Source: Myxococcota bacterium
GTDB lineage: Bacteria; Myxococcota_C; UBA6777
DNA length: 64,000 nt
Direction: 5' to 3'
Assembly: GCA_023150835.1 (NCBI GenBank)
Contig: JAKLKB010000035.1
Coordinates: 1-64,000 of the forward strand
Shown here: piece after piece, positions 1 through 16,541 of the stretch
How the letters are laid out: the number at the start of each line of letters is the position of its first letter
How positions within the stretch are numbered: position 1 is the first letter of the stretch
Notes under the pieces: generated by a model
Database searches by the model: none
The model's input: the letters and a program-made list of their open reading frames with translations, nothing else
Told to the model about the DNA's origin: nothing
Made by a program: the position numbers and the translations under genes

Positions 1-107
1 GGCTTTTTTTGGAAAAGAAGGCGATGTACAAAACCAACAACGGCTTTTTTTGGAAAAGAAGGCGATGTACAAAACCAACAACGGCTTTTTTTGGAAAAGA
101 AGACGAT
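1..107. repeat. 41-bp tandem repeat, ~2.6 copies visible, may extend past the left edge
   Basis: Unit GGCTTTTTTTGGAAAAGAAGGCGATGTACAAAACCAACAAC starts at 1, 42 and 83 (partial); no spacers. Confidence 0.9.
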
Positions 108-131
108 ACAGGCCGAGGGGTGGGAGATCGC

Positions 132-821
132 TTAGGGTTTTGGGATGGAGCGGGTGAGAAGTCGTTTGGTCTCGCGGAGGGCGTTGTGGGTGCGTTGGGT
201 GAAGGTGTCGATGGGGAGGGGTTTGTTGTGGCGCTTGGCTTGTGTGACGAGGCCAAGGATCTGGTGGGCGTGGAGGGGGGCGTCGAGATCGGGGCGATTG
301 TCGCCACGTGTCCAGCAACGCCAGAGGTGCGGGTCGTCAGGCGCGGGGCAAGAGGGAAGGTGGAAGACACCGCTCCATGCGTTGGCGGCTCTATGGAGCA
401 TGGAGGGAGGCTGGGGGGACAGGCTGGTGACGCGATGGATGATCCAGCGGTGTTCGAGGGCAAAGACGATGATCTGGCCGATGCGGATATCGGGCCATCG
501 GAGGGGGACGAGGGCGACTTGATCGCCAGTTTGGAGGAAGGGGCGCATGGAGAGGCCTGTGGTGGAAAGCCAAAGCAGATCGAGACGGAGATCACCCCAA
601 CGAGAGCGCCAAAGTTCGGAGGCGTCGCAAGCGATGACGCTTTGTGAGAGGGAGAGGATGCGGGTTTCGTTGGTTGCGAGGGAGCGCACCAACAGGCCGG
701 AGGGAAGGCGGGTGTGAGCGCAAAAGAGTTCCCATCGGTGTGTGAGGGAAGGGAGGAAGAGGAGGCTATGCGGGGGGAGGTGAAGGGCGAGGGTGGGGAA
801 GAGGCGGGGAGGGGATGTCAT
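132..821 (-). CDS. S24/S26-family (signal peptidase I-like) peptidase, Ser/His type; putative RiPP leader peptidase
   Basis: Motifs TGLSMRPFLQTGD (catalytic Ser box), IIHRV (His at the general-base position) and TRGDN; no obvious TM anchor; ATG lies 5 nt after the stop of the 60-aa ORF. Confidence 0.8.
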   Translation of the reverse strand: MTSPPRLFPTLALHLPPHSLLFLPSLTHRWELFCAHTRLPSGLLVRSLATNETRILSLSQSVIACDASELWRSRWGDLRLDLLWLSTTGLSMRPFLQTGDQVALVPLRWPDIRIGQIIVFALEHRWIIHRVTSLSPQPPSMLHRAANAWSGVFHLPSCPAPDDPHLWRCWTRGDNRPDLDAPLHAHQILGLVTQAKRHNKPLPIDTFTQRTHNALRETKRLLTRSIPKP

Positions 822-826
822 GGGGG

Positions 827-1009
827 TTAGGAGGGTTGAGGGAGGCAGTCCTCGTTGCAGGGATCGTTAAACTCAAAACATCGATCACCGCTTTTTCCCG
901 CGCTTTCGAGGGCGTTATTTTCGAACAATGGCTCGGTTTGGATGGTGGGGGGGTGGTAGGGGCGTTTTGGTGTTGGTTGCGAATGATTTTCTGCGGAAGG
1001 TTCGAACAT
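827..1009 (-). CDS. Putative RiPP precursor peptide (60 aa)
   Basis: ATG with AAGGAG RBS 9 nt upstream (1019-1024); KRPYHPPTI resembles the YxxPxL RRE-binding leader motif; Cys44/51/55; C-terminal Ser; lies in an RRE/rSAM/kinase/peptidase cluster. Confidence 0.75.
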   Translation of the reverse strand: MFEPSAENHSQPTPKRPYHPPTIQTEPLFENNALESAGKSGDRCFEFNDPCNEDCLPQPS

Positions 1010-1086
1010 CTTGGAAGTCTCCTTGTTTTTGGGGGACGGTAGATGGGATGCGAAGAAGTGCTGCGTTGGAGAAGGGCACGAGACAG

Positions 1087-4000
1087 TTAATAAACAACGT
1101 AGAGGTTGCCTTTGGCAGAGGTGCCCGTTTCAACGAGGACGAGATCAGGGAAGCCATCACCGTTGAGATCGAGGCCACCGAGCAGGCTATTGTAGCCCAA
1201 GCCAACGTTCGCAGCACTTCCAAACCAATGGATATCGGCTTTGGCGTTGAGATCGCCGCCGGTTAGGTTGTTGAAAGAGTTACCAAAAAAGAAATGGGCG
1301 GAGCCGGCGTTGCTTTGGGGGTTATCAGAAAGCCCGTTGCCGATCATGAAGTCGGCGTAGCCATCGTTGTCGACGTCGCCTGCAGCGCTTGCGGTGGAGA
1401 TTTGAGAGCCGGAGGGGCCGTAATAAATCAATTCGGCGTCGCTTTCGAGGAGATCTTTGCGTTGGTTGAGTTTTTGGCCGGAGAAAAGGAAAGCAGCGCC
1501 ACCCGTGTGGCCTTGGGGGGCGACGCGGGTGGTGTCGATGATCACGAGTTCAGGGGAACCATCTTTGTTCACGTCGCCCACAACGGAGACGAAGTTTCCG
1601 AATCGGGAGCCGGAGGTGCCTTGGATGGTGAGGGTGGCTTGGCTGCTTTTGATTTCCTTGGTGGTGGGTGTGGCAAGGAGGGGTCCATAAAAGATCATAA
1701 CGCGAGAGCTTGCGAAAGAAGGCACGATGAGATCAGCGTGGCTGTCGCCGTTGAGATCCGCCAAACGCGGGACGGTGGCGAAGGAGGTCGCGGTGGGGAG
1801 CGAATCGTTGTAGATGCGGATATCTTCGAATGTTGCGTCGCCTTTGTTTAAGACGAGTTTGTTGGGTGCTGCGGGGTAGGTAGAGCGACCAAAAAAGATA
1901 TAGATTTGGCCTTTTGCGGTGGTGTTTGGGATAGGTTCGGTGGGAGCGGATACGACAAGATCGGCGCGTGTATCGGAGTTGAGATCGGGGATTCCTCGGC
2001 GGCCTGCGGCTGCGAGTCCAAATCCAAAAAGTCCGTCGCCGTTGAGGACGACTCGCGAGGGTGTGGCGATGCTGCCGGTGGTGATGCTGTTTCGTGGGCC
2101 GCCGAAGACGATATAGACGCGGCCTTTGCTGCTGTTGGTGTAGGGGGCACCGACGGCAAAGTCATCGAAGCCATCGTTGTTGAGGTCGCCCATTCCGACA
2201 AGGCTTTGGCCGATGCGCTGGCTGCTGTCTTCGCCGTAGAGGGTGACGTCGGGGGCTGAGGGGAAAAGAGAGCCAGAGGAGGCAGGGCGGCCATAGTAGA
2301 TGTAGACCGCACCTGTACGTGTTTTGTTGGGTTCGGTGTCTGAAGGGTTAGAGACGACGAGATCGAGGAGACCATCTTTGTCGATGTCACCGACGATGGC
2401 GGTGGCGGCTCCGTAAAGGCCCGCGTCAGGCCCAATCGCGGCGAGGGTTTGTTGTTTGAATTGGGCCGTTACGGAGACGTTGTTGGAGATAGCCGAGAGA
2501 TTTCCAGCGCGGTCGATGGCACGGAGGGCGAGGGTGTATTTTTGTCCGATGCGGAATTGATCGATGACGAGAGTTGCGGTTTGTCCGGGTGTTCCGACGA
2601 TGTTACTTTGTTGGACGTTTGTTATGCCGGCCCAATTGGCATCGTTGATAGGGCCATCGCCTTTGAGCCAGCGGGCTTCGTAACGAAGCAGGCCGGAGGG
2701 GCTAGGACCCGTATCTTGGGAGTGTGCCCATGTAAGTTTGAAAGAGGCTTTGCGGTGATCGACGACTTCGACTTTGAGGTCGTTGATGGCGTTAGGAGCG
2801 GTGGTATCGATGATGACGGTGTACTGAAGGGTTGTCGATTTCTGGTTTTTTTTGGTCACTTTGACGCTGATTTTGTTTTCACCTTCTTGGAAGGTGATTC
2901 CTTGGAAATCGACGTTGCGGAGTCCAGCGGCAGCATCGACGAGGGTTTTGGTTTGAGATTGTCCGTTGATGGTGAAGTCGGCAGGTTGTCCGACTTCGGC
3001 GTCGCTGGTGCAGGACAGGCCATTTTGGACGCCTTGGGCTTGCGGATCTGTGTCGTCTGCGCTGGAAAGGTTTGCGGAATTGTTGGTGTCGAAAGCAGGG
3101 CCTTTGATGAGCTTGCAAGAAAGGGCGGGAGCGCCTTGTTCTTCGACGGTCACTTTGACGGCGGGGGAGTTGGTTTTGAGATTGCAGGTGGGTTCGAAGG
3201 CGTTGAGTTGGAAGGTGTTGTCTTGATTTTCGACGAGGGTAACGAGGAAGGTGACGACGCTGTTGTTGGCTTTTTGGATGAGTTCTTTTCCGTTGAAGAG
3301 CAGTTTGATATCCGTCCCGTTGGGGGCGCTGGTTGTGGCGCGAACGGTGTACTGAACGCCGGTGGTTTGGGGATCTTCGTCGCGACTGGCGGGGATTTTT
3401 TGTCCTTCAAGGATGTTTGCAAACGAGATGTCGTGGCCGCGAGTGCGGATCTGGACTTTGGATTCGGCGCTTTCACCGAAATTTTGGAGTGGATCTTTGA
3501 CGGTGGTTTTGAGCGTGTGTTGAAGCAGGGCGTTGATGGAAGTGAGTGTGACGCGGAAAGAGACTTTGCCGCTGTTGACTTTGTTGGGTCCAGCGAAGGG
3601 AAGGCCGTCAAGGAGGAGGTTGGCATCACTACCATCGCGAGCGTTGGTGGAGACATCGACTTGGAGTTGAAAGCCATCGGTTTGGGGGTCGAGGTCGTCG
3701 GGTGGGCAGAGGAGCTTGTTGTGGGTGGGGGAGTCGATCACGACGGTCGGTGCGGTGTTGAGGATTTGGAATTTGATTTGATTTTGGCAGCGATTTCCGG
3801 CTTTGTCGGTGATTTTGGCGGTGAGGGTGACGTCTCCGTCGGGGAGGGTGGTTTTGGTAAAGATGGCTTTTCCTGCAAGGACGGGAGCCGAAAGGGTTTG
3901 AGGGCTACCTTTGCCGTTGTCGAGGGTGATTTCAACGTCTTCGCCGGGTGCGGGGGGGGGTTCGACAAGGACTTCGATGGTTTTTTGGAGGCCGGGGGTT

Positions 4001-4491
4001 TCGGTATTTTCGTCATCTTTGGGGCCAAACACATCGCCGGCGATGGGTTTATTGATTTTGATTTGGAAGCATTGAGAGTCGACGGTGACGTTGAGAGCGT
4101 CGGAAAGGTAAGTTTGACCGTTGGCGGCGGTGAGCTTGAGTTGGAGGATGTTGGCCCCTTCGGCGAGAGTATAGCGCTGGAAGGTGAATTCGGTTGTGGT
4201 GAGGTTGATTTCTGCGGGGTTTCCGCCGTTGGTGGTGAGAGTGACTTTGCTGTTTTCGGGGGCGTTTTCGGTTTTTCCTCGGAGGGTGAGTTGAAATCCG
4301 GGGGTTTGTGGATCTTCGTCTTGTTGGGCATTAAAGTTTTTTTGAGAGATGCCGACGAATTGGATGGTTGTGGGGCCGGGCGGAGGGCCGCCACCACAGT
4401 TGCAGGCAGTGGTCGAACCTGTGAGCAGGGCCAAGCACAACCATCCCAACAGGGCGAGGCGTTGGGGTATTTTTTTGCGAGGGATAGACAT
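1087..4491 (-). CDS. Large surface lipoprotein: Ig-like repeats, FN3-like domain, FG-GAP (integrin-alpha-like) beta-propeller
   Basis: Signal peptide ending STTAC; five DxD/NxxxxGxQ motifs; FN3-like TYTLALRAIDRAGNLS-type segment (YTLALRAIDRAGNLS); multiple GD(I/L/V)(D/N)xDG and G(A/R)VY repeats. Confidence 0.85.
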   Translation of the reverse strand: MSIPRKKIPQRLALLGWLCLALLTGSTTACNCGGGPPPGPTTIQFVGISQKNFNAQQDEDPQTPGFQLTLRGKTENAPENSKVTLTTNGGNPAEINLTTTEFTFQRYTLAEGANILQLKLTAANGQTYLSDALNVTVDSQCFQIKINKPIAGDVFGPKDDENTETPGLQKTIEVLVEPPPAPGEDVEITLDNGKGSPQTLSAPVLAGKAIFTKTTLPDGDVTLTAKITDKAGNRCQNQIKFQILNTAPTVVIDSPTHNKLLCPPDDLDPQTDGFQLQVDVSTNARDGSDANLLLDGLPFAGPNKVNSGKVSFRVTLTSINALLQHTLKTTVKDPLQNFGESAESKVQIRTRGHDISFANILEGQKIPASRDEDPQTTGVQYTVRATTSAPNGTDIKLLFNGKELIQKANNSVVTFLVTLVENQDNTFQLNAFEPTCNLKTNSPAVKVTVEEQGAPALSCKLIKGPAFDTNNSANLSSADDTDPQAQGVQNGLSCTSDAEVGQPADFTINGQSQTKTLVDAAAGLRNVDFQGITFQEGENKISVKVTKKNQKSTTLQYTVIIDTTAPNAINDLKVEVVDHRKASFKLTWAHSQDTGPSPSGLLRYEARWLKGDGPINDANWAGITNVQQSNIVGTPGQTATLVIDQFRIGQKYTLALRAIDRAGNLSAISNNVSVTAQFKQQTLAAIGPDAGLYGAATAIVGDIDKDGLLDLVVSNPSDTEPNKTRTGAVYIYYGRPASSGSLFPSAPDVTLYGEDSSQRIGQSLVGMGDLNNDGFDDFAVGAPYTNSSKGRVYIVFGGPRNSITTGSIATPSRVVLNGDGLFGFGLAAAGRRGIPDLNSDTRADLVVSAPTEPIPNTTAKGQIYIFFGRSTYPAAPNKLVLNKGDATFEDIRIYNDSLPTATSFATVPRLADLNGDSHADLIVPSFASSRVMIFYGPLLATPTTKEIKSSQATLTIQGTSGSRFGNFVSVVGDVNKDGSPELVIIDTTRVAPQGHTGGAAFLFSGQKLNQRKDLLESDAELIYYGPSGSQISTASAAGDVDNDGYADFMIGNGLSDNPQSNAGSAHFFFGNSFNNLTGGDLNAKADIHWFGSAANVGLGYNSLLGGLDLNGDGFPDLVLVETGTSAKGNLYVVY

Positions 4492-4722
4492 TGATTTTTC
4501 TCCATTAAAGCAAAAACAACCACCAAGGCGACCAAGGTAAGGGTTGCGTCAAACGGCGGGCGCTAGGTGTTTTGGGTTACGCAGGCTTCTTGGAAAGAAG
4601 ACAAGGGTCACATCAAACGGACTATAAAGACTTTTGTTGGTGAAAGAAAGTCTCTTACTCGTAATTTTCTTGTGGAGAAGGCACGATCTTATCCACCTGT
4701 CGGGTGGTTTGGGCAGGTTGGC

Positions 4723-5979
4723 TCACTGGTGCCGTTGTTGGGTGTAGTGGTTTTGTGGGGGAAGGGTTGCGATGTGTTGCAAGAGGTTTTGGAGTCCTTG
4801 GGGGAGCGAGCCACAAGAGGAGCCGCAAGAGGTTTTCTTTGGGGTTGAATGGGTGGTTGAGCCGAGAGGAGGGGTGTGTTGGGCAAGTTGTTGAAGGGCG
4901 GAATGGAGGTGGTCTTTGGAGAACGAGGGAGGGCGTAGACCGTTGCGTTCTTCCCAGACTTGTCGGCGGACACGAGCGAGTGTGCAGAGAGCGGTGCTGG
5001 GCTTGGTAGGGTCGCCTGTATCGAGCAGAGCCGAACTGGGGCAGTAACTACAGTGAGATTGATCGGGGCAGACTTGGCAGATGGGGTCTTGAAAGCGTTG
5101 GAGGCTGCGGATGGATTGGATTTCTTGTCCTTGCCAGATCTCTAGCAGGCTTTGGTTGCGGAGGTTTCCGAGAGAAGGGATCAAATCCATGCAAGAGTAG
5201 ACTTGGCCGTCGCATCCGATGACGACGCGAGTACGTCCGGCGCCGCAGATCGGGCTGTTGGGGATGGCGGGTCGTGGTTCGAGTTGTTTGGCGAAAGAAG
5301 GATCGCGTTCTGCCATGAGATGGTAGAGGTAGGCGAGTTCGTCGGCTTGGACTTGCATGGAGAGAGGGTGGCGTTTGCGGTCGTGGGTAGCGCTGACTTT
5401 GAAGTCGATGACAAAGCGAGCGTCGAGTTGTGCGGCAAGTGTGCGCGTGGGGATGATTTGGCCGAGGTTTTCTTGCATTTGAAGGTATTTGATCTCGGTT
5501 TGTATGCCGACACTTCGGAGGTTTTGGAGTCCTTCGACGGTTTTTTGCCAAGAGCCCGAGATTTGGGTGATGGCGTCGTGGGGCGCGGGTTCAGCGGCAT
5601 AGAGTGTGACGGAGGCGGCGTGAACTCCGGCCTGTTTGAGTTTTTGGGAGCGTTCGAGATTGCAGGGGGTTCCTGAGGTAAAGAGGGTGATGACAAAGCC
5701 GTGTTGGCTGGCGTGGTGGATAATTTCGTAGATATCGGGGCGTAGGAGGGGTTCGCCGCCAGTGAAGGTGATGCTGGTGGAACCAAGGGCTGCAAGTTGA
5801 TCGAGAGCGTCTTTGACTTCGGGGAGTGTGAGCTCTTGGCGAGGGTTTTCAACGAGATAACATTGTTGGCAGTGGAGGTGGCATCGTTCTGTGAGGGTAA
5901 AGAAGACGCTTGCGGGGATATTGTTTCGCAAGATGCGTTCTTTGAGTTTTTGGCTAATGGAAGTGGTGGGGTGGGACAT
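4723..5979 (-). CDS. Radical SAM/SPASM domain peptide maturase
   Basis: CHLHCQQC (CxxxCxxC), TGGEPLL, SPASM CGAG...DGQVYSC...CQVC...CSYC...C. Confidence 0.92.
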   Translation of the reverse strand: MSHPTTSISQKLKERILRNNIPASVFFTLTERCHLHCQQCYLVENPRQELTLPEVKDALDQLAALGSTSITFTGGEPLLRPDIYEIIHHASQHGFVITLFTSGTPCNLERSQKLKQAGVHAASVTLYAAEPAPHDAITQISGSWQKTVEGLQNLRSVGIQTEIKYLQMQENLGQIIPTRTLAAQLDARFVIDFKVSATHDRKRHPLSMQVQADELAYLYHLMAERDPSFAKQLEPRPAIPNSPICGAGRTRVVIGCDGQVYSCMDLIPSLGNLRNQSLLEIWQGQEIQSIRSLQRFQDPICQVCPDQSHCSYCPSSALLDTGDPTKPSTALCTLARVRRQVWEERNGLRPPSFSKDHLHSALQQLAQHTPPLGSTTHSTPKKTSCGSSCGSLPQGLQNLLQHIATLPPQNHYTQQRHQ

Positions 5980-6108
5980 TGTGGGCTCCTTGCGAAGCGT
6001 GGGGTGTTGGGCTGAAAAAGCTGCGCGTGGAGAGTGTGAAGGGGAGAAGAGAGCGTTAGATGCGCAGCAAGAAGTGTTGGATGCGGTGTTTTGGCTTTGT
6101 ACGCGGGG

Positions 6109-6390
6109 CTATTTCTCCTCAAAGGAAAGGAGTTCTTTGGATTGGAGGATGGCGACAAAGCGTTGAAGATCAGCCAGAGCATATTCTGGGGAGACATCGA
6201 ACAGGGCGGAGACTTGGTTTGCGATGGTTTGGAGATCGTGTTGTCCGTCGCACAAAGACCAGATGAGAGCGCCTGTGGCGTTGAGTTCGTGGAGCTTGGC
6301 GTGGGATGCGTCAAGCAAAAAGGTGGCGTCGTCAAAGTTGCGGGTGCCGACGGTGGGGTTTCGTTTGGGTCGTATGTGGCGGGCGATCAT
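6109..6390 (-). CDS. PqqD-family RiPP recognition element (RRE), 93 aa
   Basis: LNATGALIWSLCDG...LFDVSPEYALADLQRFVAILQSKELL is typical of PqqD; ATG at 6390 follows AAGGAAG. The longer ORF-track extension overlaps the upstream gene. Confidence 0.9.
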   Translation of the reverse strand: MIARHIRPKRNPTVGTRNFDDATFLLDASHAKLHELNATGALIWSLCDGQHDLQTIANQVSALFDVSPEYALADLQRFVAILQSKELLSFEEK

Positions 6391-6415
6391 ACAAGATGCT
6401 TCCTTGTGTTGTGTT

Positions 6416-7447
6416 TCAAGCCGACATGGCGGCATTTGAGAGAGTTGGGTGCGGAGTGGTTGGATGAGCGAGAAGTTCCCAATAGGCGTTTGTGGGGGGA
6501 GTTTCGAGCAGGTCGCAAAAAGGGAGCCATTGATCGAGGAGCTCCATGAGTAGTAGTTGTTCGCGTTGGTTGGGGAAACTAAAGCAAATAACGCGAGCGA
6601 GGCGTTGGAAGGATTCGCGGGGAGAGAGGGGGTGTTTGGCGGGAGAGGTGGCGCGTTTGAGAAAGTGGATGCCTGCGAGGGGGGCGGCGATCTCTTCGCC
6701 GGGAGCGCCCCAATCGCCATAGAAGGGAGTGCCATAGGCGTACAAATTGCGGGGATTTTGTGGGTTGGGTCGAAGGGCCACGATCTCGTCGCTGAGGATC
6801 TGTGTGTTGGGAGGGGCGTTGCGGGTGGCGGTGGTTTTGCCGGACCCAGAGGTCCCAGCGAAGAGGTGGGCTTGCCCATCGCGAACGAGGCCCGAAGCAT
6901 GGAGCAAGGCACCGCCAGAAGCGAGGAGTTGGCGGTGGAGTAAGAATTTCCAGAAGGTTTGCACGACAGCACGAGCGGACTTGGGTAAAGGAGAGATCAA
7001 GCGCGCAGGGCCGAATTGTGGGACAAGAGCGGCAAAGCGGGTGTGCAAGACCCACAAGCCATCGGAGGATTCTTCGACGTGAAGCATGAGGGAGTGTTGG
7101 GCGCTGGGCTGGGGGGCGAGTTGTTTTTGTTCGGCGGCTTTTTCGTAGAGAGGTGTCAATTGCTCGAAAAGGGCGAGGATAGAGTGTTCGTATTTTTCTG
7201 TAAGTCCGGCACTACCGATGAAGTGGATGGCCATGTCTGCGGGTTGCGGTTGGGGAGGGGAGAGGAATTTGTGTTGGAAGATATCGTCGAAATGGGCGTA
7301 GATGGTGTCGGCGAGTTCTTGGGCATGGAGGGAACAAGAGGTTCCAGCGACCTGTAGGCGCAAAAACTCGGGGGGGCAAGGGGGAGGTTGGAGCAAGATG
7401 CGTTTGGCATCTTCGATAAAGGGTTGGCAGAGGAAGGTGGTGGGCAT
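6416..7447 (-). CDS. HPr-kinase-like P-loop kinase (RiPP-associated)
   Basis: LLHASGL, Walker A GTSGSGKTT, ILSDE, YGTPFYG; adjacent to the RRE. Confidence 0.8.
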   Translation of the reverse strand: MPTTFLCQPFIEDAKRILLQPPPCPPEFLRLQVAGTSCSLHAQELADTIYAHFDDIFQHKFLSPPQPQPADMAIHFIGSAGLTEKYEHSILALFEQLTPLYEKAAEQKQLAPQPSAQHSLMLHVEESSDGLWVLHTRFAALVPQFGPARLISPLPKSARAVVQTFWKFLLHRQLLASGGALLHASGLVRDGQAHLFAGTSGSGKTTATRNAPPNTQILSDEIVALRPNPQNPRNLYAYGTPFYGDWGAPGEEIAAPLAGIHFLKRATSPAKHPLSPRESFQRLARVICFSFPNQREQLLLMELLDQWLPFCDLLETPPTNAYWELLAHPTTPHPTLSNAAMSA

Positions 7448-7629
7448 GAGGTTCTCGTTGTGTGGGGTTATAAGGAGCAGTCCACGGAAAGCACGGAAAA
7501 GTGAAAGAGGTCAAAGGCCATCAGAGAGCGAAAACAAGTCGCACCTTGGGAAGGGCTTGCGCAAGCGCTATACCGCGCCACGCGAGAAATCGTACAGGAA
7601 AGAGAGATGAGGGGGGGGCTGTTGTGTCG

Positions 7630-8571
7630 TCAAGAGGCGGTCGTTTGGGAGAGGATCGCTTGGAGTGGGTTGGCGACATACGGTTGAGAGCAAAAGGAGA
7701 GTCCACATTTGGCGAAGTGGTGGGCGTTTTCGGGTTCTTTGCGTCCGAGGCAAGCGCGGGCGAGGGAGAGGTAAAGTTCGGCGAAAAAGGGGTATTGGTG
7801 TTCGTCTTGTTGGCTGTAGGTGAGGGCGGCAAAGAAGGCGCTGGCTTTTCGGGAGATGCGGCGGTGGAGGGGGAGGTCTTTGCGGCCAGCTTCGGAGATA
7901 CGGGCGCTTTCGATGAGCGCATCGAGATTTTCTTGGAGGAGAGTGCTGGCGCGTCGGTATTCGTTGCGAGCGAGGGCGATCTCGCCACGTATGGCGTCGA
8001 GGATGTAGCGGTGGGGGGGGCCGCTGGTGATCTCTTCGGCTTCGCTGAGGGCGAGGTCGGCTTGACGTAGGGCGTCTTGGTTGGAGAAGCAAAGGGCGAA
8101 CAGGCGGGCTTTTTGAGCGAGAAGCCCAGCACGAAGTAGCGAGGGTGGGACGTGTTCGAGGGCTTCATCGAGGATCTCACGGGCGCGTTGGGGATAGCCG
8201 AGGCGGCGTTCGAGATCGGCTTCCATACCCCAAACAAAAGCGGCTTCCATGCCGGTATCACGGGATTTTTGGAGCAGGCTTCGTGCAAGGGTTTCATCGG
8301 CTTCTTCGATGGCGAGTTCGGTTTGCATTCGCAGATACGCTTCATAAGGAAGCAACAGCCGCCAAAACAGCAGGTGTCTTCGAGCGGATCGAAAACGGCC
8401 TTGGCTGCGCAGTTTTCCGATATGCCGATAATGCGCAAACACGGCCATGACCATCGGGAAAAGCAGCAAGATCCCGAGCAAAAGGCCATCAATCGGCAGC
8501 CGCAGACCATAAGAGAGAAAGACGATCCCCAAAAAAGGGAACAAGATAAACAAGAGTACACGAAAGAACAT
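7630..8571 (-). CDS. Membrane protein with 2 N-terminal TM helices and a TPR-like helical region
   Basis: ATG 8571 follows AAGGAAG; hydrophobic N-terminus; TPR-like segments such as AIRGEIALARNEYRRASTLLQE. Confidence 0.65.
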   Translation of the reverse strand: MFFRVLLFILFPFLGIVFLSYGLRLPIDGLLLGILLLFPMVMAVFAHYRHIGKLRSQGRFRSARRHLLFWRLLLPYEAYLRMQTELAIEEADETLARSLLQKSRDTGMEAAFVWGMEADLERRLGYPQRAREILDEALEHVPPSLLRAGLLAQKARLFALCFSNQDALRQADLALSEAEEITSGPPHRYILDAIRGEIALARNEYRRASTLLQENLDALIESARISEAGRKDLPLHRRISRKASAFFAALTYSQQDEHQYPFFAELYLSLARACLGRKEPENAHHFAKCGLSFCSQPYVANPLQAILSQTTAS

Positions 8572-8687
8572 GCGATCTTCCTTGTGTGGGGTTTGATGGC
8601 AAGCGGTCCCGTTGTTGGGCCACAGGGGGCTTCGGACGACGAAAACGAGAAAGATGCGACTGTAAAATGGCAAGCGGTCCTGTTGTT

Positions 8688-8800
8688 GGGCAGCCACAGG
8701 GGGCTGCCCCTACATCGGTCGCTCACACAACGACGTTGTTTTTGTGAGTGGGATGGTTGCGGGGCTGTCCCTACGTAGGTCGCTCGCACGATGGGCGGAT
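8688..8800 (-). repeat. Two extended GTAG-type REP copies
   Basis: Reverse complement of GTAGGGGCAGCCCCCTGTGGCTGCCC at 8688-8713, with a degenerate second copy at ~8759-8800. Confidence 0.8.
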
Positions 8801-8806
8801 GTTGTC

Positions 8807-10821
8807 TTATTCTTTTAACAGGCCGATGCGGTCGGCCAGATCGTTGGTGAGGATGCCCGCTGGATCGAGTTGGCTTTTGAGAGAGCGCAACTGTCGTAGG
8901 CGATCCGCAGGAAAAGAGCGTTTGAATTGGTTTTCTGTCAAGAGGCCGTCTTTGGCGAAATAAAATCGCCCGCCGTGTTGGAGGACGACTTCGGTCATCT
9001 CGTGGGCGAGTCGATGGAGTCGGCGTTGGTTGCGTTCGCGGACGGGGTAGTCGAGCGCAAAGCTGTATCCGTCCACGTTGTAGGACATCAAGAAAGGATC
9101 GGGGAGGTGTTTTTTGAGGACGGCCAAAAAAGGCGGGATTCCCGCTTTTTGTGACAAAAGGATCTGTTGCTCGAAGACTTGTCGTGCGGCAGCTTTGGGG
9201 ACAAAGGTTTGGTATTGGATCAGGCCGCCCGGTTGGTAACTTTTTTGCCATCCCGGGACGTAATCCAGCAAGAAGTTGAATCCAGCGTGGCTTTGTCGGT
9301 ACGGTGGGCGCGAGGCTTCGCGGCGGTCTGCGTAAAACTTGGCGGTGTTGACCAACCGCATCCCGGGCCGATGCAAGAACATCCACAGCCCCATCCACAG
9401 CATCGATTTGGGGACAACGCCGAGGAACACTTCGGGGAGTTCTTGGTAAGAGAGTTTGAGCGTGTGGTGAGGGCGCTTGTCTTCGCCTTCTTGGAGGTTG
9501 CGTGCGACGTGCAAGGTTCCTCGCCCCAACTGAAAGCCGGGCGCAAGCGCATCGACCCAGCCCACAAGGTAATCTTGATCGAGGTGTGCTTCCATCACGT
9601 CGATCATCTCTTGGATCGAGCGTGTCGAAAAGGTTTCGACCAAGACTTCGCCGCTGTAGACGCGCTTCATTTGCAATCGAATCCGCGTGATCACCCCCAA
9701 TACTCCGCCTGATCCGATCACTCCATAAAAGACCTCGCGGTGTTGACTCGGCGAACACGTCAACAAGCGCCCATCCCCCGTCAAGACATCGATCTCCAAA
9801 ACATGATCGCCGAGCGTCCCGTATTTGAAGCTGTTCTTTCCGTGTATATTGACGCCCAATCCCCCCCCAAGTGAGGTGCGCATCGTTCCGCTGACCACAG
9901 GCGGCCACCAACCATCTTCGAGCGTGTAGTGCCACAGATCCACAATGCGCACCCCCGGCTCAACATCGATCACTCCGTTGCTCGGATCCCACGCCAAGAC
10001 CCGTCGCATCCGCGTCAAATCCAACAACACACGATCTTGGCCGATACTGGCGTCTCCATAACTTTGTCCGCTTCCGCGCAACGTGATCTTGACCCCTTCT
10101 TCGTGGGCTCGCTCAAGGATCCTCTGCGCTTGCTCCACAGTCGTTGGGCGCGTCGCATACATATCCGCACCATGCGACATCCCCCATCCGCGCACCCGCT
10201 CCATCCGCGATGACAACACCAAACCACCGCTCAATAATGCTTGCTGCATCTCCCCTCCTTCCTCTGGACTCTGCATCTCCCCTCCTTCCTCTGGACTCTG
10301 CATCTCCCCTCCTTCCTCTGAACTCTGCATCTCCCCTTCTTCCGCTGAACTCTGCATCTGCGCAATTTTCGTCTCTTCGTCTGGCTCGTTTGCCTCCGTA
10401 TGCTCGGAGTGTGTTGTGGGTTCTTTTGGGGCGGTGGGTTGCGAAACGGGAGATTCCTGCGGGTCGTCGTACGAAGTGTGAAACTCGCGCTGGTCGTTTT
10501 CCGTGTTTTCCGTGTTTTCCGTGTTTTCCGTGTTTTCCGTGTTTTCCGTGTTTTCCGTGTTTTCCGTGTTTTCCGTGTTTTCCGTGTTTTCCGTGTTTTC
10601 CGTGTTTTCCGTGTTTTCCGTGTTTTCCCCGTGTTTTCCGTGTTTTCCGTGTTTTCCGTGTTTTCCGTGGGCTCTTTTGAGGCGGGATGGATGGGGGCGG
10701 AGTGGTTGAGTTGGCGGAGTTGGGCGTCGACTTCTTCGACGGCGCGGGCGAGAAGTTCTTCTTGTGTTTTTTGGGATGGTGGGTTTTTGGGGGGTGATTT
10801 TTTCTTTCGAGAAGCAGCCAT
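8807..10821 (-). CDS. DprE1-like FAD-linked oxidoreductase with long disordered N-terminus; apparent frameshift at ~10627-10628
   Basis: [37 protein letters not shown] 10821 has an AAAGGA RBS, but two extra bases in the 9-bp repeat shift the frame. The catalytic part is intact in ORF 8807..10918. Confidence 0.8.
10244..10341. repeat. 27-bp coding tandem repeat (MQSxEEGGE, ~4 copies)
   Basis: CTGCATCTCCCCTCCTTCCTCTGGACT-like units. Confidence 0.85.
10501..10664. repeat. 9-bp VNTR (CCGTGTTTT): 14 units + CC + 4 units, encoding ENT repeats
   Basis: Counted directly; interrupted by CC at 10627-10628. Confidence 0.95.
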
Positions 10822-10866
10822 GAGGTGATCCTTTTGGGCGAGAGGCGAAGGTGTCGAGGGGGTGGG

Positions 10867-11637
10867 TTAGAAGGACATCTTGCGAAACAGGAAGCTGGGG
10901 ATTTGGCGGATGATCCACATGATCGGTCGCCAGATGCCGGGGACGTAGACGATGTTTCGGCGAGCGTGGATGGATTTGGCGATGCGCATGGCGGCTTGGT
11001 GAGGTTCGAGGATAAAGGGTTGGTTTTTGAGGTGAGCGGTCATGGGAGTACGGACGGGGCCGGGTTTAACGGTGAGGACGTGGACATCGTGAGGGGCGAG
11101 TCGATTGCGGAGGGATTCGAGGTAGGTGTCAAGAGCGGCCTTGGAAGCGGCGTATACGGTGTTTCCGCGTCGTCCACGATCACCTGCGACCGAGCCGATA
11201 CCGACGATGGTTCCGCGTTTGGTTTGGGAAAAGCGTTTGGCGGCTTCGTTGAGCCAAGCGATGGCTCCAAGGAGATTGATCTCGATGATCGATTGATCTT
11301 TGGTGAAGTCGAATTCATCGGGTGCGAGGGTGGGCATGATACCAGCGGCGTAGACGACGAGTTCAAGGCCGGGGGCTTGTTGGGAGATTTGTTGGAAGAG
11401 AGCGGGGATCTCGGCGTAGTGGGTGGTGTCGTGTGGGAAAGGAAAAGCGATGGGATCGGTGTGGCCTTGGTTGATCTCGGCAGCGAGTTTGCGCAACAGC
11501 TCGATGCGACGGGCGACGAGAGCGACGGCGTAGCCTTCTTTGGCGAGGTGACGGGCCAAGGCTTCTCCGATCCCTGAGGAAGCTCCGACAATCAACGCGA
11601 CGGGGCGAGCAGCGCGCAACAGTGTTCCACTTGTCAT
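10867..11637 (-). CDS. Short-chain dehydrogenase/reductase, DprE2-like
   Basis: GASSGIG, SVAGDRGR, YAASK, KPGPVRTPMT; directly upstream of the DprE1-like gene; GGAG RBS before ATG 11637. Confidence 0.85.
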   Translation of the reverse strand: MTSGTLLRAARPVALIVGASSGIGEALARHLAKEGYAVALVARRIELLRKLAAEINQGHTDPIAFPFPHDTTHYAEIPALFQQISQQAPGLELVVYAAGIMPTLAPDEFDFTKDQSIIEINLLGAIAWLNEAAKRFSQTKRGTIVGIGSVAGDRGRRGNTVYAASKAALDTYLESLRNRLAPHDVHVLTVKPGPVRTPMTAHLKNQPFILEPHQAAMRIAKSIHARRNIVYVPGIWRPIMWIIRQIPSFLFRKMSF

Positions 11638-11759
11638 CCGAATCTCCGATACGTAGGGGTTGATCAGGGTGATCCTTTGATCAAAAGGCATTGCTTTAAC
11701 ACAAACCGCACAAACAAGGGAGGGGCTTTTTCTTTGCTTGCTACGCAAGTCTTTTCATC

Positions 11760-11788
11760 TTGACGGCGGTGGTTGATTTTTCTATCAT
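11760..11788 (+). promoter_or_regulatory. Putative sigma70 promoter
   Basis: TTGACG-17 nt-TATCAT upstream of the CDS at 11868. Confidence 0.6.
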
Positions 11789-11867
11789 CGCCAGACACGC
11801 ACCAAGAGTTGAAGCGTTTCGGATATTTGTTGATACGAGGGGTCTTCCCAAAACAAAGGAGGGTACG

Positions 11868-12704
11868 ATGTTGCTTCGTTGGTTGGGTGGTTTGGTGATC
11901 GTGATCGGGTTGCTTTTGGGGGGTGGAAGGGTTGCGCACGCGCAAGAGGATTGCGGGATCACGGGGTACACACAACAGGCTTGCCATGCGGAGTTTGTGC
12001 CGACGCGTCAGATGTTGGGTGGGGGAGTGCAGCAGTTGGTGTATCGCTCGAATGATGGGGCGATGGCGATTTATCGGGCGATTCCGCACAGTATGGTGGC
12101 CAATTATGCCGATCCGTTCAAGACATTGATCGATCAGGCGCGGGATACGTTTATGAAAGATTGGCAATCCACGCCGAGAGAGATGTGGGTGAAAACAGTC
12201 GAGGGGATCGACTCTTTTGTGATGGCGTTCCCGGGGCAGCGTTTTGTTGCGGTGACACCTGTTCGTGCGGGATTTTTGATCGGGGCCTTTCAGATCCCGA
12301 GCCAAACAAGCCCGCTGTTTGTGTACCTCAAGCAAGAAAGACTGGCTCCGCGTGCGAATCCCCCGCAAATCAGCCATATCAGGCCGCGTTATCCGATGCA
12401 AGCCTCAGGTGGTTCTCAAGATTCGGGGAGTACGCAAGTCCCGGAAACGGGGGCTTTGTGGCGTTGCGATTCACAAGGGACGTACAAGATCTGCGAGAGA
12501 AGCAGCGGCTCGGCATGGGAGCGGAATTGTCGGAGTCGGACTTCGTCGGCTGTGGGTTTTGGGGCGTCTCGTTTGATGGCGCAGACCAAGGCGAATGGCA
12601 GTTGTTCGCATCACATGACGAAGATGATCTTAATTTCGAATATCGGTGGTGGGGGCTATCGGGTGTCGGGGTGCCGTGCGATCTCTTGTCGGCGCGTGCG
12701 CTAA
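11868..12704 (+). CDS. Secreted hypothetical protein with Cys-rich C-terminal domain
   Basis: AAAGGAGG RBS; signal peptide ending AHA|QE; six Cys in the C-terminal ~80 aa. Confidence 0.7.
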   Translation: MLLRWLGGLVIVIGLLLGGGRVAHAQEDCGITGYTQQACHAEFVPTRQMLGGGVQQLVYRSNDGAMAIYRAIPHSMVANYADPFKTLIDQARDTFMKDWQSTPREMWVKTVEGIDSFVMAFPGQRFVAVTPVRAGFLIGAFQIPSQTSPLFVYLKQERLAPRANPPQISHIRPRYPMQASGGSQDSGSTQVPETGALWRCDSQGTYKICERSSGSAWERNCRSRTSSAVGFGASRLMAQTKANGSCSHHMTKMILISNIGGGGYRVSGCRAISCRRVR

Positions 12705-12720
12705 GGTCGGTGTGGGGGGG

Positions 12721-13770
12721 TTAGCGGATGCGGGTATCTTCGACGACGCGGCCATCGACGAGGCGGATCAAGCGGTCTGCGCGTTCGGCAAAGTAAGTGT
12801 CGTGAGTGACCATAAGGAAGGCTTTTTGGGTGGTGAGGTTTAATTCGCGCATCAAGTTGAAGACGATCTCACCGCTCTTGCTGTCAAGGTTTCCCGTCGG
12901 TTCGTCGGCGAGAACCAAGACAGGATCGTTGGCGAGAGCGCGCAAGATCGCGACGCGCTGTTGTTGCCCGCCCGAAAGCTGGCTTGGTCGGTGAGAGATG
13001 CGTTCTTTGAGGCCGATCAATCCGAGTAGTTCGGTCATGCGGTGTCGGTTGGCCTCTTCAAAAGAGCGGCCACGCAAACGGCAGGGGATCAGGACGTTTT
13101 CGAGGACGTTGTATTCGGGGAGGAGGTAGTGAAATTGGAAGATAAAGCCGAGAAAGTCGCGGCGCATGATGGCGCGTTCATCTTCGGAGAGCGAGGCGGC
13201 ATCTTTGCCACCCAAGAACACTTCGCCCGAAGTGGGGGTATCCAAGAGGCCCATGAGGTTGAGCAGGGTGGTTTTGCCAGAGCCCGAAGCACCGACGATA
13301 GCGACGAATTCACCCGGCATGACGCGCAGATTGATATCAAAAAGAACTTGGGTGGTGACTTCGCCAAAAAAGCTCTTGTTGATGCCGCGCAGTTCGAGGA
13401 CAGGCTGGTTGGGATCGAGGCGGTTGCTGGTTTCTTGCCAGAGGGTGGCGAGCTTTTTTTTGACGGCTTCCATGCTCTGATCGCCGTTTGAGACAAAGGG
13501 GCTTAAAGAAGCCTTGGCATCGGGGGATTCGATCGGTTTGCGTGTCCAAAATTGTGGTTTATGGAAAGCCAGTGCATCGGCTTGGATCTCTGGGGTGGAG
13601 GGCGGAGTGGCGTCTTTGGGATCGGGGATCTCGACCTGTTCGAGGAGATCTTCGAGTGAGTCGGCGAGAACGGGGGCAGAAGATGGTGTTGCGGATGAAT
13701 CGGAGTTCGATCGATTGTTTTTGTCGGATGGTCGGGAGTTTTTGGATGGTTTGGATTTGATCTTGCTCAT
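12721..13770 (-). CDS. ABC transporter ATP-binding protein (LolD/MacB-like) with disordered N-terminal extension
   Basis: GASGSGKTT, LSGGQQQRVAI, LADEPTGNLD, VTHD. Confidence 0.92.
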   Translation of the reverse strand: MSKIKSKPSKNSRPSDKNNRSNSDSSATPSSAPVLADSLEDLLEQVEIPDPKDATPPSTPEIQADALAFHKPQFWTRKPIESPDAKASLSPFVSNGDQSMEAVKKKLATLWQETSNRLDPNQPVLELRGINKSFFGEVTTQVLFDINLRVMPGEFVAIVGASGSGKTTLLNLMGLLDTPTSGEVFLGGKDAASLSEDERAIMRRDFLGFIFQFHYLLPEYNVLENVLIPCRLRGRSFEEANRHRMTELLGLIGLKERISHRPSQLSGGQQQRVAILRALANDPVLVLADEPTGNLDSKSGEIVFNLMRELNLTTQKAFLMVTHDTYFAERADRLIRLVDGRVVEDTRIR

Positions 13771-13774
13771 GGTT

Positions 13775-15031
13775 TTAGGCTCCTCGGATCACTTCGATGG
13801 GGTTGACACGCGAGGCTCGCCAAGCGGGGTACAAGGCCGCAAGGAGTCCCACCACCATCGCGATCAAGAAAGCGGTGAGGATGACGCTGGGTTTGACTTC
13901 GACAGAAAAGACACTGACCAAGCGCCCCAAGGTATCGCGGCGTTTAAAGGAAGTGAGGTAGTTTGCGAGGCCCATGCCGACGGCAGTTCCCATACAAGCG
14001 CCCAAGAAAGAGATGATCACGCCTTGAAGAGTGAAGACGCCGATGATCTGGGCGCGGGTGGCTCCCATGGCTTTGAGGATGCCGAGTTCGCGCATCTTGC
14101 TGACAACAGACATGATCAAGATGCTGGCGATCCCCAGTCCTGCGGCGATGGTGGTCAATAGCAGGATGATGTTGGTGGTGACGTTTTGCGACTGCATGGC
14201 GGTTAAGAAGTTTTCGTTGTCTTCCATCCAAGAACGTACCTCGAAAGGCACACGCTGTCGCAGACGGACGGCCAGTCGTTTGGCATGGTAGATCTCGCCG
14301 ATCTTGATGTAAAAGGCGGATATCGCGGTGGATAGGCCAAATAGCGATTGTGCATCGCGCAGCGGGATGTAGGCGGAGCTACGGTCGCGCATACGTGCGC
14401 CTGTGGCAAAGACCCCCGCTACGGTGAATGTGACGCTTTCGGAGTTGGCGTTGACAAGGCGGACTTTGTCGCCGATCTGTACGGAGAGATCATCCGCGAC
14501 ACCGATCCCGATCACGATCTGCCCTGTGTTGAGGCCAAAGAATTTCCCGCCGATCAGCTTGTCTTGGATCTGGATCACTTTGTCGTACTCTTCGGGGACA
14601 ACGCCTGTGATGCTTACGGCGGTAGGAAGGGCACCACGAAACAAAATGGCCTGTTCAGAAACAACGGGAACAACCGCCCGAACCAACGGATCAAAGGAAG
14701 CAAAGCGTTGCTCCCATGTGTTCCAGTTTTCGAGTTTGCGGATCTGATTGGACATCCTGAAGCTTTTGCCGATGTAGAGGGTGGGTTCGCCCTTTTTTTG
14801 GAGGGCGGGGATCTGCCAAGCGGCTTGGGGGATGCGCTCTTCGGGCAGGATCGTGATGTGTGGCATGGACTCCGTGATGGTGGTGGTAATCCGCGATTGG
14901 ATCCCTTCCATCATCGTACTCAAGCCGATGATCAGGGTTACGCTGATCATGACGATCCCCATCGTCAGTAAAGTTTGACCGATATTATGGCGCAGGCTGC
15001 GCAGCGCCATCGACCAAGCAAATCGATTCAT
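13775..15031 (-). CDS. ABC transporter permease (LolC/E/MacB, FtsX-like)
   Basis: ELGILKAMGA, YPAWRASRVNP, four-TM layout. Confidence 0.9.
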   Translation of the reverse strand: MNRFAWSMALRSLRHNIGQTLLTMGIVMISVTLIIGLSTMMEGIQSRITTTITESMPHITILPEERIPQAAWQIPALQKKGEPTLYIGKSFRMSNQIRKLENWNTWEQRFASFDPLVRAVVPVVSEQAILFRGALPTAVSITGVVPEEYDKVIQIQDKLIGGKFFGLNTGQIVIGIGVADDLSVQIGDKVRLVNANSESVTFTVAGVFATGARMRDRSSAYIPLRDAQSLFGLSTAISAFYIKIGEIYHAKRLAVRLRQRVPFEVRSWMEDNENFLTAMQSQNVTTNIILLLTTIAAGLGIASILIMSVVSKMRELGILKAMGATRAQIIGVFTLQGVIISFLGACMGTAVGMGLANYLTSFKRRDTLGRLVSVFSVEVKPSVILTAFLIAMVVGLLAALYPAWRASRVNPIEVIRGA

Positions 15032-15091
15032 CGAAGCCCTCTCTTTTGTGCAAAGACATCGGTAGTTTCGGCGATATGGAGATAGGCTCGA

Positions 15092-16381: not shown

Positions 16382-16541
16382 GCTTCGTTCTCTTTTGTGG
16401 TTGTGCCGTGAGCGGGCTTCGTTTTGCGGAGGGTTTGACCTTCCCAACGACGATTTCTGCGGCACAAACTACTGGACATCGCTTTGGGATACAAGACACC
16501 TGTCAAGGAATGTAGTGTTGTTGTTTGTGCAACAGTGAGGA

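Follow-up and report, generated by a model that had tools for sequence, protein, structure and literature searches.

At the start of contig JAKLKB010000035.1 from a Myxococcota bacterium (assembly GCA_023150835.1, 7.56 Mb in 239 contigs), genes for a kinase, a PqqD-type protein, a radical SAM/SPASM enzyme, an FG-GAP protein, a small peptide and a peptidase follow one another in that order on the minus strand (Table 1). We analysed the first 64 kb of this contig, hereafter the window, with attention to the peptide gene, an open reading frame (ORF) of 60 codons. An earlier examination of the DNA letters without database searches, which we call the sequence-only reading, had proposed this ORF as the precursor of a modified peptide. 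The 60-residue ORF, the AAGGAG 9 nucleotides (nt) before its ATG and the 5-nt gap to the peptidase gene were all found as that reading gave them. The TAA stop of the peptide gene occupies positions 829-827 and is followed, after five bases, by the ATG (821) of the peptidase ORF at 132-821; no signal peptide was found in the peptide. The 60-codon frame is a real, conserved gene, and its locus is present in RNA libraries. We consider it probable that the gene encodes the precursor of a peptide made on the ribosome and altered after translation (RiPP), which would be matured by a RiPP recognition element (RRE), a kinase, a radical SAM/SPASM enzyme and a protease, all from the same locus.

Table 1. 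Positions of the peptide gene, its parts and the neighbouring genes in the window (aa, amino acids).
Feature	Position	Strand	Remarks
Precursor peptide gene, 60 aa	827..1009	-	Translation is exactly the 60 residues quoted in the sequence-only reading
Shine-Dalgarno-like AAGGAG	1019..1024	-	9 nt before the ATG at 1009-1007
Peptide leader (predicted)	about residues 1-31 or 1-34		K15-x-x-Y18-x-x-P21-x-I23 and E26-x-L28-F29-E30
Peptide core (predicted)			G38-K39 motif, C44/C51/C55, terminal S60
Leader peptidase candidate, 229 aa	132..821	-	Archaeal/ER signal-peptidase type (S26B, 'SpI-like')
FG-GAP/Ig-like secreted or lipoprotein-like protein, 1134 aa	1087..4491	-
Radical SAM/SPASM enzyme, 418 aa	4723..5979	-	C-x3-C-x2-C and full SPASM Cys pattern
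PqqD-family RRE, 93 aa	6109..6390	-
HprK/PEPCK-fold P-loop kinase-like protein, 343 aa	6416..7447	-

Evidence for a conserved peptide gene

By itself, the peptide ORF is weak evidence for a gene, since 102 ORFs of at least 40 amino acids overlap the first 12 kb of the window and this is one of them. The coding strands of window positions 1-12000 are C-rich and G-poor. Measured in 400-nt windows, the very strong GC skew there amounts to +0.2 to +0.48 over all stretches with minus-strand genes and changes sign at about 9400-10600, and strand skew of this kind produces long spurious ORFs in other frames. The comparisons below nevertheless show that the peptide ORF is no chance frame. A hidden Markov model (HMM) built from 30 Acidobacterial peptides, none of them from the window's phylum (Myxococcota_C), was run on the 1210 stop-to-stop frames of at least 25 amino acids in the window, and the peptide frame was the single significant match (E 8.6e-7; runner-up 0.097). 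The same model selects a syntenic small frame in three related loci (E 9e-11 to 3e-8).

The collection searched holds six species genomes of the window's phylum, and the peptide profile matches once each in four of them, the window's own included. In the other three (G003, G004 and G005), the small ORF lies, as in the window, between a protein of about 1150 amino acids and a homologue of the 229-residue ORF. The larger neighbour is an FG-GAP protein by Pfam in the window and in G004 and is represented by aligned homologues in G003 and G005. Conservation at homologous loci, which the sequence-only reading required, was thus found in these three genomes and also in Acidobacterial loci. The peptide search gave nothing convincing in the two genomes of the same genus, G001, where the locus is broken and the kinase gene runs off the end of its contig, and G002, which is only 64% complete and shows no trace of the locus, a result that does not establish absence. 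Twelve residues are invariant across the four matching genomes, and 10 of these 12 use more than one codon; for the terminal Ser, two genomes have TCC and the other two AGC.

In one activated-sludge sample, four RNA-seq runs gave contigs that cover the peptide ORF; they record its presence only, without strand or transcript ends. Single RNA-library contigs span about 122-4605, which takes in the peptidase, peptide and FG-GAP genes, and the enzyme genes at 4585-7480 are represented by shorter pieces. Depth was 44-67 over the FG-GAP/peptide/peptidase part and 2-15 over the enzyme genes, values that apply per contig in one sample and do not rank expression. The strain captured in these contigs carries four base differences inside the ORF, all of them changing the core (F45L, N48G and D54N), and its leader, three Cys and Ser60 are unaltered; the 3405-nt FG-GAP gene has three differences only. 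In run X14, a deep contig covering 824-4648 ends two or three bases past the peptide stop with adapter attached, and the peptidase part forms a separate, shallower contig, while the other three runs bridge position 824. This contig end could be an RNA 3' end, a processing site or an assembly accident. A promoter and terminator scan returned one promoter-like site where 2.3 were expected and 17 terminator-like sites where 10.2 were expected, none of them informatively placed.

The peptide family and its gene cassette

A HMMER search seeded with seven close peptides (E<=1e-3) gathered a family of 449 cluster representatives, and we examined 151 peptides, comprising the window's own and the hits listed under 200 amino acids. 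The Tyr and Pro of the leader motif YxxPx(I/L/F), present in 150 of the 151, are the most conserved feature of the family. A C-terminal Ser closes 146 of the 151, and at least one Cys stands past the leader in 149 of 150. Counted after position Y+17 in the same 150 peptides, there are two Cys in 127, one in 17, three in 5 and none in 1, and the most frequent length of this part is exactly 19 residues (102 peptides). As the search profile itself contained the terminal Ser, the count was repeated on a set chosen by an internal pattern, [VA]FETxAL[SA]CG, and so picked without regard to the terminus; among its 80 loci, with 61 distinct C-terminal parts, 60 of the 61 end in Ser. The sequence-only reading had suggested looking for conserved YxxP, FExxAL, Cys and terminal Ser, and all of these turned up.

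The main family reads basic-basic-P-Y-x-K-P-x-F ... V-F-E-T-x-A-L, then x-C-G-K ... C ... S. The window's peptide belongs in a small A-L-E-S-x-G-K subgroup, whose members are labelled Myxococcales or Myxococcota in NCBI records, and its leader reads F-E-N where relatives have F-E-T/S/V. Y18, P21, E26, E30, A33 and C51 are invariant in an alignment of 30 peptides, with F29 nearly so, and the seven closest peptides all keep L28, F29 and S60. None of the eleven peptides tested is matched by a Pfam or NCBIfam model, and the homologous peptides are hypothetical proteins in public records or are unannotated. The expectation that gene callers would probably miss the ORF was nonetheless mistaken, as homologues have been annotated in public records and the 449 cluster representatives were found among predicted proteins. 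Two scans of metagenome contigs for the A-L-E-S-x-G-K subgroup each returned 75 stretches with the pattern, none of which was confirmed by tblastn. Judged by its sequence, the window's peptide is a member of a large, unnamed family of putative precursors with a YxxP leader, a Cys-containing core and a terminal Ser.

We also scanned one genome per species, which gave more than 599 pattern matches, 561 of them confirmed, and kept the best 80 loci. Nearly all of these come from metagenome-assembled genomes of Acidobacteriota (Terriglobia), and three are labelled Rhodoferax, Alphaproteobacteria and Limnocylindrales. When proteins of the window and its relatives were compared with the 80 loci by tblastn, homologues were found for the radical SAM enzyme in 34, the kinase in 31, the PqqD-type protein in 30, the peptidase in 20 and the FG-GAP protein in 1 (remote). 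The radical SAM gene is thus the enzyme gene most often kept near the peptide gene. Where the enzyme genes are present, they form a compact cassette of abutting and often overlapping genes in the order peptide, peptidase, kinase, PqqD and radical SAM. The window has homologues of all four enzyme genes within 132-7447, and these and the peptide gene are the five parts of this widespread cassette. In the window's phylum they are rearranged around a gene for a large surface protein, which has the enzyme genes before it and those for peptide and peptidase after it. The proposal of a RiPP-type precursor accordingly gains support both from the conservation of the family and from the four co-located enzyme genes.

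Enzymes of the locus and a proposed maturation pathway

The peptidase candidate conserves G89-x-S91-M92, H129-R130 and T171-x-G173-D174, with S91, H129 and D174 invariant in four sequences. It matches the NCBIfam model sigpep_I_arch at 2.5e-9 (below cut-off) and Pfam Peptidase_S24 at 0.019, and its profile also matches eukaryotic SEC11 catalytic subunits (SEC11C, 3.3e-5). A Ser in G-x-S-M, a putative His general base and a conserved Asp box, the marks of S26B peptidases, can all be recognised in it. The kinase-like protein is invariant over 20 homologues at H183-A184, G198-x-S200-x-x-G203-K204-x-T206 (Walker A) and D220-E221, and has weak NCBIfam matches to ScmC (7.4e-6) and HprK_rel_A (0.0018). 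A Foldseek search with its structural model returned PEPCK at ranks 1-35 (best 1.2e-6) and HprK/P chains from rank 36 (1.9e-4); the predicted local distance difference test (pLDDT) score exceeds 90 across most of residues 170-320 and is 69 for the whole model. With a P-loop fold, a Walker A motif and an acidic pair, the model points to an HprK/PEPCK kinase fold.

The PqqD-type protein finds its best NCBIfam match in ScmD (3.4e-10) and also matches the lasso PqqD model (1.8e-8), both below cut-offs. The nearest relatives that its profile finds are lasso B1 proteins (TbiB1 at 3e-10, also TfuB1), and it additionally matches 9x8z_B, a 'PqqD family protein' entered in 2026, at 5e-8. The radical SAM/SPASM enzyme matches Pfam Radical_SAM (6.2e-20) and SPASM (1.6e-12), with PqqE as its best solved relative (5.7e-11) and no NCBIfam equivalog cut-off reached, and is a candidate peptide cross-linking maturase. 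In the 1134-residue protein, Pfam FG-GAP matches at 5.7e-40 over 7 stretches that make up a C-terminal integrin-type beta-propeller at about residues 690-1134, accompanied by Big_13 and Ig-like domains.

Several further features flank these genes. The contig begins just past the peptidase gene with a 41-nt tandem repeat (window 1-107, 2.6 copies, with a T-run); contigs C224, C201 and C21 of this assembly carry copies 87-91% alike, internally or at their ends, and the repeat is probably the reason why the assembly breaks at this point. In relatives, a MoxR-type AAA+ ATPase gene stands downstream of the peptidase gene (G005 L029:2552-7522, G004 L012:2865-3119, G003 L009:3-359), with an AAA_3 match at 3e-62 and a weak match to a 'MoxR-vWA-beta-propeller' model, and in G005 the genes that come after it encode a DUF58 protein and a PEGA-domain Ser/Thr kinase. 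The window's contig stops short of the position that this ATPase occupies. On the other side of the enzyme genes, a repeat of about 50-60 nt lies at about 8665-8735, between a TPR-like ORF and an FAD-oxidase ORF; at least 40 copies, 83-100% alike, are scattered over contigs of the same-genus genome G001, and it looks like a repetitive extragenic palindromic (REP) or miniature inverted-repeat transposable element (MITE). The long ORF at 8807-10918 contains, in its N-terminal part, a 27-nt repeat (4.3 copies, 10244-10359) and a 9-nt repeat (19 copies, 10496-10669), which give runs of E-N-T among others ahead of a DprE1-like FAD oxidase domain.

In the maturation pathway that we propose, the PqqD-type protein would bind the leader motif Y18-x-x-P21-x-I23 and present the peptide to the three enzymes of the same locus. 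The HprK/PEPCK-fold kinase would phosphorylate the invariant C-terminal Ser60, and the radical SAM/SPASM enzyme would cross-link the Cys-containing core, most likely through a thioether formed by Cys51, the conserved one. The leader would be taken off by the Ser/His protease of signal-peptidase type, whose ATG comes 5 nt after the stop of the peptide gene, most likely by cutting right after the conserved L-F-E-N or inside the following N-A-L. The closest studied system is the pathway to linear polyphosphorylated peptides (LPP) in Bacillota (LppA/LppB/LppK/LppS/LppN/LppD; Popov et al., Nat Commun 2026, PMC13381572), and, according to the main text of that paper, a YxxP-type motif is what lasso and LPP recognition elements bind. 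The sequence-only reading had named YxxPx(L/I) as an RRE-binding motif, and this agrees with the near-universal Tyr and Pro of the family and with the PqqD-type RRE in the locus.

Co-folding of peptide and RRE, which the sequence-only reading had also proposed, gave a score of 0.51 against 0.02 for the best control, with contact agreement of at least 81% between runs and a partner pLDDT of at least 53. Among solved complexes 58 of 80 passed the mark, and among mismatches 2 of 110; passes at or below 0.60 comprised only 7 of the 80 solved complexes together with both passing mismatches, and the result was graded as weak support. As like complexes have already been solved, a pass may reflect no more than that likeness. 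Binding of the leader by the RRE is thus suggested by homology to solved RRE-leader pairs and, weakly, by the co-fold model.

The lasso HprK-like kinases PadeK and PsmK phosphorylate the C-terminal Ser of their precursors, and all precursors of the phosphorylated lasso peptides (paeninodin, pseudomycoidin) end in Ser, as reported in PMC6993621; the general statement about lasso kinases in the sequence-only reading agrees with this source. For Ser60 as the phospho-acceptor, the conservation of the terminal Ser and the HprK/PEPCK-fold kinase in the locus speak in its favour, and phosphorylation itself is plausible by this analogy. The thioethers proposed for Cys44, Cys51 and Cys55 are not supported in that form: of the three, C51 alone falls on the Cys that the 30-peptide alignment keeps throughout. 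The specific cross-link partners are likewise unsupported, since F45, N48 and D54 all vary in the strain seen in the RNA libraries, although one may speculate that a bond to an alpha carbon could survive changes of this kind.

Leader removal can be compared directly with LPP, whose peptidase is described in the main text of PMC13381572 as archaeal-type and signal-peptidase-like, with catalytic S29/H68/D93, and as cutting after T-1 solely when the RRE presents the leader, a cut that needs F-3, E-2 and T-1. By this precedent the cut would fall between LFEN and NALES, giving a core of residues 32-60, which is three residues earlier than the site near NAL-ESAGK first suggested. The placement after L-F-E-N is uncertain, and either site keeps the invariant Ala33 nearby. 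The initial interpretation was therefore right in outline, as to the precursor, the RRE motif and the terminal Ser, and unsupported in its chemical detail.

A number of observations weigh against this pathway. Peptide genes that have no gene for any of the four enzymes nearby, for instance just after recR, account for 46 of the 80 Acidobacterial loci. The G004 locus (L023:13598-19686) has the kinase, PqqD, propeller, peptide and peptidase genes but no radical SAM gene, with just 75 nt between the PqqD and FG-GAP genes; the best radical SAM match of that genome, at 30% identity, is found away from this locus with no kinase or PqqD gene alongside, so that the radical SAM step would either be dispensable or come in trans. 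Of the four cores, that of G004 is also the sole one without the G-K motif, a single case which hints that the conserved Lys region and the radical SAM enzyme go together. The kinase, the PqqD-type protein and the radical SAM enzyme all stay below the curated NCBIfam cut-offs, and the loci of the four genomes share no conserved exporter. In LPP, the sole characterised relative, the kinase targets Ser3 and not a terminal Ser (main text of PMC13381572). Finally, phosphorylation and cross-linking are proposals for this family, and the RNA-library evidence consists of contigs from one sample that show neither strand nor translation.

The propeller neighbour and relation to known systems

One of the features that sets this locus apart is its secreted neighbour. 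In the window's phylum, each of the four loci has the FG-GAP propeller gene immediately upstream of the peptide gene. Acidobacterial loci have a different secreted protein of about 600-650 amino acids, found in 55 of the 80, that is, in 29 of the 34 loci with enzyme genes and 26 of the 46 without them. This protein (e.g., L047:10511-12376) matches no Pfam family, and among the listed copies many have a D-W-S/T-H-H-H-V-like motif near the N terminus. Its AlphaFold model is a beta-propeller (pLDDT 68.8; predicted template modelling score 0.79), closest to the designed 8-bladed Cake8, BamB and PQQ-dependent dehydrogenases. In 51 loci the protein could be given a full ORF. Of these ORFs, 15 are on the strand of the peptide gene and directly upstream of it, 21 on that strand and directly downstream, 12 further along it (10 downstream, mostly just past the radical SAM end of the cassette, and 2 upstream) and 3 adjacent on the opposite strand. 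The propeller gene therefore abuts the peptide gene on the same strand in 36 of the 51. When the Acidobacterial propeller and the FG-GAP protein were compared as profiles, no similarity emerged (probability 0.2). A secreted beta-propeller gene thus accompanies the peptide gene in both phyla, a new observation, and the presence of two unrelated propeller families at the same place suggests a functional link, with the peptide as a possible subunit, cofactor or ligand, for which gene adjacency is the sole basis.

As an alternative to a free-standing modified peptide, the mature product might work with the secreted propeller as a small subunit, cofactor precursor or ligand, and the cassette would then mature that partner. 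Besides the frequency and the same-strand abutment of the propeller genes, this is favoured by the peptide loci that lack enzyme genes and still keep the propeller, and by the single RNA-library contig that spans the FG-GAP, peptide and peptidase genes. A parallel is offered by quinohemoprotein amine dehydrogenase, in whose maturation QhpC, a small Cys-containing peptide, is cross-linked by a radical SAM/SPASM enzyme (QhpD), loses its leader to a serine protease (QhpE) and joins a beta-propeller subunit; we know of no kinase in that maturation. The likeness is limited, however, as the peptide-propeller link here is known from gene adjacency alone, and the analogy to this enzyme and to PQQ is tentative. 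Adjacency also differs from interaction, the two propeller families share no profile similarity, and the peptide has no signal peptide and its locus no conserved exporter. We regard this alternative as unlikely. It is compatible with the modification steps and alters the biological role. A more specific form, likewise unlikely, is that a phosphorylated, cross-linked peptide is the dedicated partner of the adjoining propeller, as prosthetic small subunit, cofactor precursor or ligand, two unrelated propeller families having been recruited to the same position, the FG-GAP/Ig lipoprotein in the window's phylum and the BamB/PQQ-dehydrogenase-like propeller in Acidobacteriota.

A second alternative is that the peptide is an LPP-like linear phosphopeptide whose chemistry is defined by the RRE, the kinase and the SpI-like peptidase, with the radical SAM enzyme as an optional tailoring enzyme or one acting on another target. 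The two systems have in common a YxxP leader with a hydrophobic-F-E stretch, a discrete PqqD-type RRE, a kinase like HprK, an SpI-like Ser/His/Asp peptidase and the lack of a lasso cyclase, so that the types of leader, RRE, peptidase and kinase all match those given for LPP in the main text of PMC13381572. Additionally, the G004 locus keeps everything else without a radical SAM gene. The same text gives the LPP leader as YxxPxVLxHQxIxFETxxS, and has the LPP kinase acting on Ser3 of the core in precursors of 35-200 amino acids with variable C termini. Compared with this, the spacing from Y to F is two residues shorter in our family, and the third position after F-E-T has no conserved Ser. LPP cores are long with a conserved Ser3, whereas those described here are short and Cys-containing with an invariant terminal Ser, and the phosphorylated Ser3 has no conserved counterpart in them. 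The radical SAM gene, which is the enzyme gene kept most often and abuts the PqqD gene in compact cassettes, and the near-constant presence of a Cys in the core further count against a purely LPP-like product, which we think improbable.

Other differences from LPP concern gene content and host range. LPP has no radical SAM enzyme, and 'radical', 'SPASM' and 'Acidobacteri' occur 0 times in the main text of PMC13381572. The LPP core cluster includes the NTP-transferase LppN and the MsbA-like exporter LppD, neither of which is conserved in the present locus; the scanned long ORFs of window 132-16465 gave no Pfam match to either type. That paper's main text describes the module of RRE, HprK-like kinase and SpI-like protease, first characterised in 2026, as restricted to Bacillota. 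The hosts here are Acidobacteriota and the window's phylum, and a secreted propeller gene accompanies the peptide gene.

The SynChlorMet system, defined bioinformatically only (NCBIfam TIGR04248 ScmD, TIGR04249 ScmC, TIGR04250/04251 ScmE/F), similarly combines an HprK-related protein, a PqqD relative and radical SAM/SPASM enzymes. ScmD is the best NCBIfam match of the PqqD-type protein, and ScmC is one of the best for the kinase. The window's proteins fall far short of the SynChlorMet cut-offs, at 40-47 bits versus 100 for ScmD, 25-28 versus 125 for ScmC and 56-85 versus 400 for ScmE/F, and there is one radical SAM enzyme here versus two in the SynChlorMet cassette. A literature search under that name, with most subscription journals outside its reach, found no description. 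Sactipeptides and ranthipeptides are radical SAM/SPASM thioether peptides with a Cys-containing core and a maturase with an RRE. The sactipeptide maturase model StsB matches the window's radical SAM enzyme at 2.3e-27, yet with 96 bits against a cut-off of 625, and to our knowledge a kinase and a signal-peptidase-like protease are no part of these classes. In the literature searched, which again missed most subscription journals, we found no description of a peptide system combining an HprK-like kinase, a PqqD-type protein, a radical SAM enzyme and a signal-peptidase-like protease.

Phosphorylated lasso peptides resemble the present family in their YxxP-type leader, PqqD-like B1 protein, HprK-like kinase and terminal Ser, and differ from it in that leader removal here is predicted to fall to a serine signal-peptidase-like enzyme and a radical SAM/SPASM enzyme is present. 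No Pfam match to a lasso macrolactam cyclase or B2 protease was found among the scanned long ORFs of window 132-16465, and the compact Acidobacterial cassettes leave no room for these genes. A lasso-type ring was considered for the G003 and G005 cores, which read G-x-x-K-x-I-D-D after A-L, and was rejected, as no cyclase turned up in that scan and the pattern fails in the window, in G004 and in the main family. Two further readings of the ORF are highly implausible, namely a frame open by chance on C-rich DNA, as its shortness and the many spurious ORFs overlapping this strongly skewed stretch might suggest, and a lasso precursor, as the type of its leader motif might. The former is ruled out by conservation, synonymous codon changes and family size; against the latter stand the negative Pfam result for a cyclase and a B2 protease among the scanned ORFs and the want of space for either in the compact cassettes.

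We thus return to the reading of the ORF as the precursor of a RiPP matured by the RRE, kinase, radical SAM/SPASM enzyme and protease of its locus. By homology, the locus is a sister of the RRE/kinase/signal-peptidase pathway described in 2026, adding a radical SAM enzyme and a propeller neighbour. Its more than 500 relatives extend the LPP-type module beyond Bacillota, with an added radical SAM/SPASM enzyme, and show a system that occurs commonly among Acidobacteriota of soil as well as in a small and poorly known phylum of activated sludge. From the invariant C-terminal Ser, phosphorylation at the terminus is predicted, and the recurrent secreted propeller neighbour may point past an antimicrobial role. 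If the partnership of peptide and propeller is true, this would be a widespread and undescribed peptide-plus-propeller system and not an antibiotic-type RiPP.

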